The position numbers were made by a program, and so were the translations under genes. DNA of 30,596 nt from an uncultured archaeon (GTDB taxonomy: Archaea; Asgardarchaeota; Baldrarchaeia; Baldrarchaeales; DXJG01). Below the pieces are notes generated by a model. That model was not told the DNA's origin. It made no database searches and worked only from the letters and a program-made list of their open reading frames with translations. The DNA is taken from positions 1 through 30,596 of the forward strand of contig CAYYZD010000002.1 in the NCBI GenBank assembly GCA_964476035.1. The letters are read 5' to 3'. Of this stretch, positions 17,476-22,508 are shown piece after piece. Numbering within the stretch: position 1 is the stretch's first letter; each line of letters begins with the position of its first letter.

Positions 17476-17599
17476 CTTAACCCGGCCTCGGTAAATGTTA
17501 ATTTACGTGTCGAAACTAAACTAATTTAACACTTATTAAAAATTTCTGATTCATCTACTAGCAATGATTAGTTATAAAGAAGAAGGGAGATATGAAACT

Positions 17600-18730
17600 A
17601 TGAAAGAAAAAACATGAAAGATAGGGTTTATCGTCAATCCCATAGCCGGAATGGGCGGAGTTGTGGGCTTAAAAGGTACGGATGAGGAAGTTATTTTGAA
17701 AAAAGCCCTAAAATTAGGGGCAAAACCAGTTGCTCCCAAAAGAGCAGAGGAAGCCCTAAAAAATCTATTGCCATTAAAAGAACACTTAGAATTAATTACT
17801 TACCCCCATAATATGGGTCAGGACGAAGCAGTTAGTGTCGGGTTTTCACCCATGGTAATCGGAAATATAACTCCAGGAAAAACATCGGCAAAAAGATACC
17901 AAGCAAGCAGCAAGAGAAATGAAGAAACTTAAAGTAGATTTGATTGTTCTTTGCGGCGGCTGCGGCGGCGACGGAACTGCTTGTGACATTTACGAGGCTA
18001 TTGGTGATAGCGTCCCTTTTATTGGCGTTCCAGCAGGAGTAAAAATGCATAGTGCAGTTTTTGCAGTAAACCCGAAAGCTGCAGCAGAAGTTGTAATCAA
18101 ATTTTTAACTGAGGGACTTCCTTTAAGGCAGGCAGAAGTTATGGATATAGATGAAGATGCTTTTAGAACTGGTGTACTTTCTGCAAAGCTGAAAGGTTAT
18201 CTTCTAGTCCCGTATGAACCTGAACTTATGCAAGGTGTAAAGACATCTAGCCCCTTAACGGCAAATGAAGAGGAAAATAAGATGGCCACAGCAAGATACA
18301 TTGTTGAAAATATGGATCCTGAAATATTTTACATTTTGGGTCCTGGTACAACTACTAAGGTCATTGCGGACCTTCTAGGCGTTAAAAAATCTTACTTGGC
18401 GTTGACATTATAAAAAACGGGAAAATAATTGCTAGAGATGTTGGAGAAAAGAAAATCTTAGAGGTAATAAGAGGTAAAAAAGCTAAAATTATTGTAACAC
18501 CCATTGGAAATCAGGGCTTCATCTTTGGTAGAGGGAATCAGCAAATAAGTCCCAAGGTCATTAGAGAAGTCGGCATCAAGAATGTTATTGTTATAGCGAC
18601 ACGGTATAAGCTTTCTACAATAAAATATTTGAGAGTTGATACCGGTGATGAAAGTTTAGATGAAGAATTAAGAGGATATACCCGTGTGATTGTTGATTAT
18701 AATGAAGAAAAAGTTGTTAAAGTAGTTTAA
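17600..18730 (+). pseudogene. ATP-NAD kinase / AcoX-like (COG3199) gene with several disruptions
   Basis: IGFIVNPIAGMGG.VGLKGTD, GGDGT, GVPAGVKMHS, GPGTTT and GQGF-like NQGFIFGRGNQQISP motifs spread over three segments. TGA at 17615-17617 (or an extra A after ATG 17614), +1 in the A-run 17890-17894, -1 near 18390. Confidence 0.85.
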
Positions 18731-18732
18731 AG

Positions 18733-19158
18733 CTATTCTTCTTCAAGTTTCTTTTTTAGATATTCGGCGTATTCTTTCGCTGTCATGAGATTTTTAAGGT
18801 CGTTTTCCAGGTCTGTTGGTTCTACAACGATCATCCAACCATTCCCGTAGGGATCATCCTCTACTATTTGCGGCATGTCTTCCAGTTCGGTGTTAACTTC
18901 AAGTACTTTGCCAGATACTGGAGAATAGAGATCTTCTGTAGCTTTTTCGGATTCTATCTCTCCGAATGGTTGGTTAAACTTTACTTCATCGCCCGCACTA
19001 ACTTCGAAACCAATGTAAGTTATGTTACCTAGCTGTTTTCTAGCATAATCCGTAATTCCCACTCTAACCTTCCCGTTCTCCTTTTTTAACCATTCGTGAG
19101 TATCGCTATAATATAAATCTTCAGGAATTTCATAGTCGTTTACTTTTATCTCTATCAC
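18733..19158 (-). CDS. gcvH: Glycine cleavage system H protein (start ambiguous: ATG 19191 or GTG 19158)
   Basis: YSDTHEW, RVGITDYA..QLG, EIESEKA lipoyl-Lys motif, DPYGNGW. Confidence 0.95.
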   Translation of the reverse strand: MIEIKVNDYEIPEDLYYSDTHEWLKKENGKVRVGITDYARKQLGNITYIGFEVSAGDEVKFNQPFGEIESEKATEDLYSPVSGKVLEVNTELEDMPQIVEDDPYGNGWMIVVEPTDLENDLKNLMTAKEYAEYLKKKLEEE

Positions 19159-19162
19159 CCTC

Positions 19163-20311
19163 CTACGTATCTTTTTTTCTATTATAGCCATATCTTTCTA
19201 TATCGTAAAAGGGCCATTTAACTATTTTTGCATCCACAAGTTTACCCCTAATATTTATTTTAACGGCCTCGTTCACCTGTGCATATTCAGAATTTATAAG
19301 CCCAAACCCTATCCCTCTTTCAAGTATTGGTGAAAAAGCGCCACTTGTAACATATCCGATCTTTTCATGATCTTTCAGTATTTCGTAGCCATGTCTCGGG
19401 ACCCTACGTCCAGAGAGTTTTAGTCCCACCCTCTTCCTCTTTACACCTTCTTCTTTCTGTTTTAATAACGCACTTCGCCCAATGAAGTCTCCCTTCTTAA
19501 ATTTTACAACAAACCTCAGTCCAGCTTCAAGTGGAGAAATCGTCTCATTGATATCGTTCCCGTATAAAACCATTCCAGCTTCAAGTCGTAGAGTGTCCCT
19601 TGCACCCAATCCACAGGGTTTAATTCCATGCTCCGTGCCAGCTTCCAAGATTTTCTCCCACAAATCAATTGCCTTTTCTTTTTCTGAGAATGGAACATTT
19701 AACATAATTATTTCAAAGCCGTCTTCTCCGGTATATCCAGATCTGGATACTATGGTATCATATCCTCCCAATTTTGTCAACATGCACCAATATCTCTTTA
19801 TCCCGCTAAGATCGTCGCTAGTAAGCTTCTCAAGCGTAGATTGAGCTTTTGGCCCTTGAACTGCAAACATACAGGTTACATCAGAAACATCCTCAATTTT
19901 AACATTAAAATTTTGTGATTTTTCCTTAAACCAATTGTTTATTTTTTCTCTATTCACAGCATTAACGACTACAACATATTTGTTATCTTCGATCTTAAAT
20001 AGGGTTATATCGTCTTTTATCCCACCTCTGTCATTACAAACAACGGAATATTGTCCCTGTCCAAGTTTTTTTAGCCTTTTAACATTGTTTGTAGTAACAT
20101 ATTGTAGAAAGTCTTCTGCATCACTTCCGCTAACCATAAAACGCCCCATATGCGTTACGTCGAAAATTCCCACATTTTCCCGAACAGCTAAATGTTCTTT
20201 AATTATTCCACCTGTATCCTCATACCAGAGGGGCATGCACCAACCAACAAATTCAACCATCTTCGCCCTTTTTTTATGCCACTCATACAAGTGAGTTTTA
20301 TGAAGATCCAT
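19163..20311 (-). CDS. gcvT: Glycine cleavage system aminomethyltransferase T
   Basis: KTHLYEWH, EHLAVR..VGIFDVTHMG, SRSGYTGEDGFE, GLGARDTLRLEAG. Confidence 0.96.
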   Translation of the reverse strand: MDLHKTHLYEWHKKRAKMVEFVGWCMPLWYEDTGGIIKEHLAVRENVGIFDVTHMGRFMVSGSDAEDFLQYVTTNNVKRLKKLGQGQYSVVCNDRGGIKDDITLFKIEDNKYVVVVNAVNREKINNWFKEKSQNFNVKIEDVSDVTCMFAVQGPKAQSTLEKLTSDDLSGIKRYWCMLTKLGGYDTIVSRSGYTGEDGFEIIMLNVPFSEKEKAIDLWEKILEAGTEHGIKPCGLGARDTLRLEAGMVLYGNDINETISPLEAGLRFVVKFKKGDFIGRSALLKQKEEGVKRKRVGLKLSGRRVPRHGYEILKDHEKIGYVTSGAFSPILERGIGFGLINSEYAQVNEAVKINIRGKLVDAKIVKWPFYDIERYGYNRKKDT

Positions 20312-20512
20312 GACATGTCACCAATTTAAATTTGTTATCATTTACACTTAACAACATTTTTAAAATTTTCATCGTGAAGAAAACAAAACGGTCAAATATC
20401 TCGATGGACTAAATTAACTCCGTATCCGTTAAGTATGTTAAATCTGCAATGCTTTAAATCTCCAGTAAATACTGTAAATTACTGAATGTGGTTTGTTTTA
20501 AAGTGATGAAAT

Positions 20513-21742
20513 ATGAAAATACGAGGGGAAATCGCTAATATTCCAGTAGGCGATGATTATGATGTAGTCGTTGTAGGAGTTATAAATGTTAGTCCTGAGT
20601 CGTTCTATAAGGGTTCTATTGTTAAATCGAAAAAAGAAATAGAAGAAAAAGCACTAGAAATGGTTGAAGAAGGAGCCAAAATATTAGATGTAGGTGCAAT
20701 GTCCACCGCTCCAGGGGTTCCTCCCATATCTCTGAAGGAAGAAAAGAAACGTATGCTTTTTGCTATGAAAGCATTGCGAGATATCATTGATGTACCGATA
20801 AGTGCCGATACGTTTAGGGCGGAAGTTGCAAATGTTGCATTAAAGGAGGGGGCTGAGATCATAAATGATGTTAGTGGCTTAAAGGCCGACAAGAAGATGG
20901 CTAAAATAATTTCAGAGTACGATGCGTCAGTTATTGTTATGGCTGCTGAAAAACGCCCAGGAGATGTAGGAAAAATTTTGAAAATAAAACATGCACTTAG
21001 ACAAAGTTTACAAATCGCAAAAAGCAGTGGCATTTCTGAGGAGAAAATTGCTGTAGATCCCGGAATCGGCTTCGGGAAAAAGGTTACGGAGGACCTTCAT
21101 ATACTTAGAAATTTAAATAGGTTGAGAAGTCTTTGCAGACCTATTTTAGTAGGAGTTTCAAGAAAGTCTTTTATAGGGAAAATCCTTAATCTGAAAGATC
21201 CGAGGGAAAGACTAATTGGTAGTCTAGCGGCAACAGCTATCGCAGTATACAACGGCGCCCACTTAATAAGGACTCATGATGTTAGAGAAACTCTGCAAGC
21301 TGTTAAAATAGCTGAATCAATCAGGAGAAATGTTTTAAGCTTAGATGCGGATGGAATAAAAGTTACACTATTATACACTTCCAGCTATTTCGGCGACCTA
21401 GAAGATTTATTTGTTAAGATAGGTGTTGACAGATGGGCATTGAACATATTCAATCAAAAATCGATATATCTTGCTGTACTTGTTGAAAACATTAGTACTC
21501 CAGCTGCATTAATTATTAAACAGGAAATGTTAGCATGTGGCGGTGACGCTGCTCTGCCCAAGGAAATGATAGATTTCCATTTAAAGAAAGGATCTATCAT
21601 TATTTTTGGAACTTATGCCCAATATAGGAAATTAGTAAAAAAAATTAGAAAAATGCCTTTCCATCTTTCTGTTGTTGCAAAACTTTTGAAAAGGATATTA
21701 GGAGTGTGTAAGGAAAATGACTATGACTCTTATACCCATTAA
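20513..21742 (+). CDS. folP: Dihydropteroate synthase with extra ~130-aa C-terminal domain
   Basis: GVINVSPESF, GAKILDVGAMST.PG, ISADT, INDVSG, DPGIGFGK, GVSRKSFIG, RTHDV. Confidence 0.9.
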   Translation: MKIRGEIANIPVGDDYDVVVVGVINVSPESFYKGSIVKSKKEIEEKALEMVEEGAKILDVGAMSTAPGVPPISLKEEKKRMLFAMKALRDIIDVPISADTFRAEVANVALKEGAEIINDVSGLKADKKMAKIISEYDASVIVMAAEKRPGDVGKILKIKHALRQSLQIAKSSGISEEKIAVDPGIGFGKKVTEDLHILRNLNRLRSLCRPILVGVSRKSFIGKILNLKDPRERLIGSLAATAIAVYNGAHLIRTHDVRETLQAVKIAESIRRNVLSLDADGIKVTLLYTSSYFGDLEDLFVKIGVDRWALNIFNQKSIYLAVLVENISTPAALIIKQEMLACGGDAALPKEMIDFHLKKGSIIIFGTYAQYRKLVKKIRKMPFHLSVVAKLLKRILGVCKENDYDSYTH

Positions 21743-22508
21743 GACTAGGATGATTACTCCAGGTGACGATATAGTTGAAGTGGTACTCAAGTCCCTAAAG
21801 AAAGTAGGTGGGAGAATTAAAAATAGAGATATACTAGTTTTGGCTGAAACTGCTGTTGCAACAGCCGAAGGGAGAATCATCGAACTAAATAAAATAAAAC
21901 CTAGTTCTGAAGCATTAAAACTATCAAAAATGTATGATATTGTTCCAGAACTGGCTGAATTGATTTTGCGAGAAGCTGATGAAATTCTGGGTGGTGTTCC
22001 CCACGTTGTTCTCACTTTAAAGAATGGTGTTTTGATTGCTAATGCTGGTATTGATAAATCTAATGCCCCACCGGGCTGTGTTGTACTACTTCCCCAGAAT
22101 CCTATGAAAACCGCTCAGGAAATTAGAAAGAAAGTTTTTGAAAAGACCGGGAAGAAAATTGGTGTTATAATTGCTGACAGTAGAACTCAACCTTTGAGAC
22201 TTGGAACCATAGGTGTCGCTTTAGGTGTTGCTGGTTTTATTCCAGTATCTGATGAACGAGGAAAATTGGATATCTTTGGAAAACCTCTAATGATAACGAG
22301 ACGAGCAATAGCTGATAATCTGGCATCAGCTGCGGAAGTTTTAATGGGTGAAGCAGGGGAGATGGTACCAGCAGTCTTGATCAGAGGTGCACCTGTTGCA
22401 TTCACCGATTGCCCCATTAACCTTGAAAGTATGTTAATATCCCCAGAGGAATGTCTTTATATGTCCATCTTTAAAAACGTATTTAAAGACTTTAAGAATA
22501 AAAAATAA
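21717..22508 (+). CDS. cofE: CofE-family gamma-glutamyl ligase (F420:glutamate ligase or alternative folylglutamate synthase)
   Basis: ANAGIDKSN, IADS, GVALGVAG, D.RG..D.FG..L.IT..AIAD.LASAA...MGE..E..P..LIRG. Confidence 0.8.
   Translation: MTMTLIPIKTRMITPGDDIVEVVLKSLKKVGGRIKNRDILVLAETAVATAEGRIIELNKIKPSSEALKLSKMYDIVPELAELILREADEILGGVPHVVLTLKNGVLIANAGIDKSNAPPGCVVLLPQNPMKTAQEIRKKVFEKTGKKIGVIIADSRTQPLRLGTIGVALGVAGFIPVSDERGKLDIFGKPLMITRRAIADNLASAAEVLMGEAGEMVPAVLIRGAPVAFTDCPINLESMLISPEECLYMSIFKNVFKDFKNKK

Follow-up and report, generated by a model that had tools for sequence, protein, structure and literature searches.

The gene cofE-B lies within a stretch of 30,596 nucleotides (hereafter the window) on contig CAYYZD010000002.1 of an uncultured archaeon of the Baldrarchaeia (Asgardarchaeota), the source assembly of which (GCA_964476035.1) is 82% complete. 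Its product, which databases name an F420-0 ligase, is predicted here to be a (tetrahydro)pteroate/folate gamma-glutamyl ligase similar to FolC2 and the Asgard replacement for FolC, with a probability of about 0.8. A role as alternative folate glutamylase had been proposed in an earlier note drawn from the sequence of the window, and it is supported by the absence of folC among 61 Asgard genomes, the presence of a canonical CofE paralogue, the existence of a folP-linked CofE clade and the reductase-like domain carried by FolP. The two genes at the centre of this proposal and their relevant segments are as follows.

21717-22508, plus strand: cofE-B, CofE-family gamma-glutamyl ligase paralogue, predicted FolC replacement (PF01996, 257.9 bits)
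22176-22199, plus strand: DSRTQPLR motif, CofE-B residues 154-161, which replaces the ring-facing DTxGRxxR segment (alignment to Archaeoglobus fulgidus CofE, AfCofE)
22437-22463, plus strand: C-terminal segment ISPEECLYM of CofE-B, residues 241-249, with Ile for AfCofE Arg234 and the clade-specific Cys246
20513-21742, plus strand: folP, whole gene (TIGR01496, 253.8 bits against a cut-off of 162.6)
20513-21328, plus strand: dihydropteroate synthase (DHPS) barrel of FolP, residues 1-272, bacterial FolP type (TIGR01496 passed; best PDB matches DHPS)
21329-21742, plus strand: C-terminal domain of FolP, residues 273-409 (profile, match to Sulfurovum FolP, structure model)

The gene identities, the paralogy, the residue changes, the genomic linkage and the missing folC and folA are direct observations. 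CofE-B belongs to the CofE/COG1478 family according to PF01996 and to the conserved residues D113, N116, D154, D200 and E212, and its structure model has the CofE fold (Foldseek E 5e-27; TM-score 0.86, root-mean-square deviation (rmsd) 2.2 A and 32% identity to AfCofE, PDB 2PHN). Two other PF01996 genes are present in the same genome: contig C102 carries a canonical cofE, contig C6 a highly divergent copy. The C102 protein passes both cofE cut-offs (TIGR01916 and NF009809) and aligns to AfCofE through Arg234. In quick, unrooted trees of 82-88 proteins the Asgard copies split into type A (CofE-A) and type B, to which the window copy belongs, with SH-aLRT values of 95-98 on the branch to A, and the folP-linked CofE forms a clade separate from the cofD-linked CofE. 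Profile scores follow the same division: TIGR01916 gives 319 bits for the C102 protein and 210 for CofE-B, the order is reversed with TIGR04132 (88 and 133 bits, respectively), and other A/B pairs show the same trend.

Residues D113, N116, D154, R161, D185 and D200 are invariant in both types, and the two types differ at positions that in AfCofE contact the F420 ring, taken from published work as the G153-C155 segment and R234 (PMC10861534). The ring segment reads DTxGRxxR in CofE-A (GR in 28 of 29 proteins) and DSRTQPLR, of the TQ type, in CofE-B, where G153-R154 is replaced by T-Q. The equivalent of R234 is Arg in 21 of 29 CofE-A and in none of 34 CofE-B, being Ile in the window copy; CofE-B has instead a C-terminal Cys-x-Tyr of its own, with Cys246 present in 33 of 34. 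AfCofE F92 was discarded as a clade marker because it varies in both types. As the catalytic residues and the fold are kept and the F420-binding positions are changed, CofE-B appears to be an intact ligase whose cofactor pocket has been remodelled.

A folate-related role for a CofE-family protein has a precedent in Chlamydia CT611 (COG1478), which complements Escherichia coli folC (PMC1971073, PMC4161248). CofE-B resembles CT611/FolC2 (TIGR04132) in its family, in its location within a folate gene cluster and in occurring in a lineage devoid of folC; moreover, it outscores the CofE-A paralogues on TIGR04132 and groups with TIGR04132-like proteins from bacteria of the Candidate Phyla Radiation (CPR). 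It differs in its TIGR04132 score (132.6 bits, far under the cut-off of 350, which the CPR homologues do not reach either), in being archaeal, phylum-wide and accompanied by a true F420 CofE (F420 is absent from chlamydiae), and in its partners, which are FolP, a reductase-like domain and MptA/MptE instead of the chlamydial folB-folKP-folA-CT610. With A. fulgidus CofE (AF2256; PDB 2PHN, 7ULD) it shares the fold and the acidic/Asn catalytic core, but it has lost G153-R154 and R234 and has no cofD/cofC link, the C102 copy being the real counterpart. CofE-B is like CT611/FolC2 in its proposed role, not TIGR04132 by score and not canonical CofE by residues or context.

The distribution of these genes was surveyed in 61 Asgard genomes, complete ones among them. 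No folC scored over the cut-off in any of the 61 (own genome 82% complete), a search in which 11 of 14 controls were matched, and folA was likewise not found, although sporadic Asgard folA is reported in the literature. CofE-B and folP occur together in 42 genomes and are both missing from 13, with 6 mismatches (CofE-B only in 4, folP only in 2), and CofE-B is present without the methanopterin synthase MptH in 22. The two genes lie within 1 kb of each other in 23 of the 42 genomes and within 5 kb in 28, cofE-B being downstream of, upstream of or head to head with folP depending on the family. In contrast, folP was found in none of the CofE-A loci fetched, several of which hold cofD or cofC; cofC/cofD-like neighbours occur only in CofE-A loci. 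Other folate-related neighbours recur: in other families MptE adjoins CofE-B or folP, 17 of the 30 folP loci examined (five families) show gcvT in head-to-head orientation with folP, in Atabeyarchaeia gcvT faces CofE-B itself in this way, and in CPR bacteria proteins with the CofE-B-type motif are encoded beside a DHFR-like gene and a formyltransferase. Under a strict profile threshold, which passes over divergent copies and may let in a small sister group, CofE-B was detected in 165 of the 190 Asgard genomes with a completeness of 90% or more, those of the cultured Promethearchaeum syntrophicum and Lokiarchaeum ossiferum among them. The four genomes of the genus have gcvH, gcvT, folP and cofE-B in an identical arrangement; together with the recurrence of the folP link across the phylum, this argues that the locus is not a product of chance. 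The nearest named relatives, metagenome-assembled genomes (MAGs) labelled Baldrarchaeota or Odinarchaeota (78-84% identity), have the same gene order.

Two further contexts of CofE-B-type genes were observed. An unannotated membrane protein, possibly the S component of a folate transporter, precedes the CofE-B-like ligase in Nanoarchaeia and in one CPR genome (L045:3171-3887, L046, L047, L133:717-1415), and in a Bathyarchaeia MAG, as well as in family f8, CofE-B-type genes are flanked by genes resembling argG/argH (L040, L065; N-terminal sequence only).

The FolP barrel is a DHPS of bacterial type and not the archaeal MptH, for which TIGR00284 gives only 33.6 bits. It keeps the SRKS, RTHD and DPGIGF motifs, and the Arg of loop 2 is replaced by Ala (window positions 20696-20710), the loop reading STAP or SSAP in nearly all Asgard copies vs STRP in most DHPS, a change that may bear on aryl-amine specificity or on the response to sulfonamides. 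The C-terminal domain (residues 273-409) has no Pfam match, and neither Pfam nor NCBIfam holds a model for it. A profile built from 14 Asgard C-terminal domains matches 911 representatives; among the long ones the domain stands before DHPS in 39 and after it in 15, and named clusters include FolP of Deltaproteobacteria and Bacillota. The domain aligns with the N-terminal part of Sulfurovum mangrovi FolP (29% identity, E 2e-5); it corresponds, in permuted order, to the N-terminal domain of many bacterial FolP proteins, the Campylobacterota type among them. In this phylum, Helicobacter pylori FolP is a fusion of DHPS with a flavin-dependent dihydropteroate reductase (PMC1971073, citing Levin et al. 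2007); the reductase (DHFR2/Prd) is N-terminal there and the domain C-terminal in Asgard FolP, H. pylori has FolC, and the homology was shown with the Sulfurovum protein, from the same phylum, rather than directly with that of H. pylori.

The structure model of this domain (pLDDT 83.7) retrieves ThyX as five of the top six structural matches (Z 8.9 to 6.2), all from one flavin- and folate-binding family. The best ThyX scores are moderate (Z 8.9, 8.3 and 7.6, the first with rmsd 3.1 A over 92 aligned residues); Foldseek gave no match at E<=0.001, ThyX appearing only in weak rows, a word-seeded search returned congeners only and the leads of an Atlas feature search were all under 0.9. A ThyX-like fold would fit a predicted flavin-dependent dihydropteroate reductase. 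The domain occurs in only 13 of the 61 genomes, a stand-alone copy turned up in none of the 61, and most folP-bearing Asgard genomes lack both folA and this domain. A short-chain dehydrogenase/reductase encoded beside folP in an Odinarchaeia-like family was considered as the missing reductase and rejected, as inspection by eye found no TGxxxRxG start typical of FolM-type reductases.

For the enzyme activities, the nucleotide used, mono- or polyglutamylation, the role of the reductase domain and the source of p-aminobenzoate (pABA), we infer the following scheme. MptA and MptE, encoded elsewhere, would provide the pterin pyrophosphate; MptA was found in 5 of 5 genomes checked and MptE in 3 of 5, the latter being missing from the own assembly. 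The FolP barrel would join this precursor to pABA, which is probably imported, since no chorismate-binding enzyme for pABA synthesis was found in 5 genomes. The ThyX-like domain of FolP would then reduce the dihydropteroate with a flavin, and CofE-B, by analogy with CofE, would activate the pteroate carboxylate with GTP and metal and add the first, and probably further, gamma-linked glutamates. GcvT and ThyX would use the product; GcvP-like and ThyX-like genes are present elsewhere in the genome by motif evidence, and a motif search of the genome for serine hydroxymethyltransferase gave no match. Maturation of F420 would be left to the separate, canonical CofE-A. The compact non-canonical pathway proposed in the earlier note is supported as to the additional reductase-like domain of FolP, but it is not self-contained, as the pterin genes lie elsewhere and no pABA synthesis was found; likewise, GcvT is retained as a proposed user, but the folate would also serve ThyX and possibly more enzymes than glycine cleavage.

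The lack of other F420 genes in the window, to which the earlier note had also pointed, is correct: cofC and cofD have no match anywhere in the assembly, and none of the open reading frames (ORFs) of the genome with the radical S-adenosylmethionine motif CxxxCx[FY]C lies on the contig of the window, which excludes cofG and cofH from it. As an argument for a folate role it was rejected, because the three congeners have cofD and the own genome carries the canonical cofE, the F420-dependent mtd and a mer-like gene. F420 is made by the genus, and the argument for a folate role is the specialisation of a paralogue, not the absence of F420.

Other candidate glutamyl ligases were noticed in these genomes. 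The divergent CofE-like protein of contig C6 (329 aa; C6:18870-19859, L003:1162-2151, minus strand) is encoded beside ftr in the one-carbon (C1) cluster in all four congeners and is a candidate ligase for methanofuran or another carrier. A RimK/MptN-type ATP-grasp ligase encoded directly after mch (C6:4083-4982, minus strand) is another candidate cofactor glutamylase. A fourth CofE-like group (about 300 aa, with an insertion of about 30 residues and without the GR/TQ motif) occurs in the congeners and in three other families (L057:4088-4990, L066, L070, L114).

Several results weigh against a folate role of CofE-B. The protein passes the F420 model TIGR01916 (209.6 bits, cut-off 180.65), although it fails NF009809 (211.6, cut-off 274), and its TIGR04132 score adds to this; the tree, in which TIGR04132-like CPR proteins fall on the CofE-B side, does not include CT611 itself. 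The missing pABA enzyme counts on the same side, as do folD and fhs, which were not found in the genus. CofE-B occurs without folP in four genomes, three of them of an Atabeyarchaeia family and two of these complete, and in Thorarchaeia-like genomes of family f7 (L086, L098, L111, L112) it lies downstream of mtrH/mtrA-like genes and DUF2114 instead of folP, a context that suggests a folate-linked methyltransferase module. Finally, part of the folP/CofE-B linkage may be inherited synteny, related genomes not being independent, and Fisher tests were set aside because they overstate for this reason.

One alternative, considered unlikely, has FolP in the place of MptH and CofE-B adding glutamate to a methanopterin-like or differently modified pterin carrier, whose hydroxy-acid phosphodiester end is similar to that of F420-0. 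The full fwd-ftr-mch-mtd-mer block with mtrH in a genome without MptH, folD and fhs would suit this idea, as would the mtrH/mtrA neighbours of CofE-B in f7, but a search for the RFAP synthase MptG, on which methanopterin synthesis depends, gave no match in the genus and none in families f3, f5, f7 and f20, all of which have CofE-B. Besides, the presence of CofE-B does not follow that of MptH, family f14 has CofE-B, folP and folD without mtd, and a RimK/MptN-type ligase is already at hand beside mch. The STAP loop 2 of FolP, which differs from STRP, also speaks for such a carrier; however, sul-type DHPS lack the loop-2 Arg as well and yet use pABA.

Still less probable is a second F420 ligase, acting for example in tail extension and kept beside folP by inherited synteny. 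Passing TIGR01916, the database name, the presence of cofD in most Asgard genomes and the unrelated conserved neighbours of the block, such as radA, would agree with it; nevertheless, the F420-ring contacts are replaced in all CofE-B copies, a canonical CofE-A coexists, the folP link outlasts several rearrangements, CofE-B-like proteins adjoin folate genes in CPR bacteria and the FolP product would be left without a glutamylase. A narrower version of the folate reading, in which de novo synthesis is incomplete and CofE-B only extends imported folates as a salvage polyglutamylase, has very little probability. It draws on the complete Atabeyarchaeia genomes, where CofE-B without folP is head to head with gcvT, on the lack of a pABA pathway and, in most folP-bearing genomes, of both folA and the FolP C-terminal domain, and on the folic acid contained in the P. 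syntrophicum culture (PMC9931769), and it is opposed by the translational overlap and near-perfect co-occurrence with folP and by the MptA and MptE genes.

If CofE-B does glutamylate folate, the C1 metabolism of its hosts gains a possible carrier. Besides mtrH, the own genome encodes a fwd-ftr-mch-mtd-mer cluster; MptG and MptH were not found in the genus, and mtd without MptG/MptH also occurs in families f3, f5 and f20, folD being mostly absent from these genomes. We tentatively consider, with more doubt than confidence, that in Baldrarchaeia, Odinarchaeia-like and some other Asgard archaea the pteroylglutamate made by FolP/reductase and CofE-B is the only self-made pterin C1 carrier, running Fwd, Ftr, Mch, F420-dependent Mtd, Mer and MtrH. 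Import of methanopterin is a live option, as family f15, which carries mtd, has neither of the two routes, and MptG/MptH could have unrecognised substitutes; both count against a sole folate carrier. Haloarchaeal Mch and Mer are presumed to act on tetrahydrofolate (PMC8305020), and haloarchaea likewise combine methanopterin-type C1 enzymes with a genome lacking methanopterin-specific synthesis genes; they differ in having FolC and FolA, while the own genome has the complete Fwd-Ftr-Mch-Mtd-Mer branch and lacks folD.

The remaining features of the locus are listed below.

18733-19191, minus strand: gcvH, glycine cleavage H protein (TIGR00527, 140.3 bits against a cut-off of 115.85)
19163-20311, minus strand: gcvT, folate-dependent aminomethyltransferase (TIGR00528, 394.5 bits against a cut-off of 235.85)
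20312-20512: divergent gcvT/folP spacer of 201 bp, head to head, conserved in four congeners
20357-20370, minus strand: candidate archaeal B recognition element (BRE) and TATA box for gcvT-gcvH, GAAAA then TTTTAAAAA (read from sequence; block conserved in 4 congeners)
20453-20459, plus strand: candidate TATA box TTTAAAT for folP-cofE-B (read from sequence; conservation weaker)

The start of gcvH is probably lower than called, at GTG 19158 or ATA 19149, the latter matching the Met of 138-aa orthologues. As the earlier note had stated, folP (20513-21742) and cofE-B (21717-22508) overlap by 26 bp and the pair is divergent from gcvT-gcvH; the overlap shortens to 20 bp should translation begin at the second ATG (21723). 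For the spacer, where the earlier note proposed a shared promoter region, the conserved BRE/TATA-like block toward gcvT and the weaker TATA toward folP suggest two back-to-back promoters. A sigma-70 promoter scan gave no match, sigma-70 being irrelevant in archaea. Before gcvH, a gene of the NAD-kinase fold (17597-18731, plus strand) is in three pieces, with two frameshifts near 17900 and 18400 relative to a 378-aa orthologue; it is also split in congener L035, and an assembly error is possible for the window copy. In two other families an intact copy is found between gcvH and cofE-B, and this gene may belong to the module.

No paper assigning a FolC-replacement role in Asgard archaea was found in the literature, where an earlier prediction of an archaeal FolC2 is possible. 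If the prediction is true, the last step in the gap of Asgard folate synthesis would be filled by a phylum-wide FolC substitute that is now annotated as an F420 ligase. In both cultured species, P. syntrophicum (QEE16374.1/QEE16373.1) and L. ossiferum (UYP48297.1/UYP48296.1), folP with the C-terminal domain overlaps a cofE-B annotated as F420 ligase, which makes the question testable in culture. The ThyX-like model would offer a first fold hypothesis for the FolP-fused reductase domain, and the pair CofE-A/CofE-B, housed in one cell, a model for a cofactor switch of the CofE fold. It would also follow, if true, that eukaryotes did not receive their FolC-type folylpolyglutamate synthase (FPGS) from the Asgard host.

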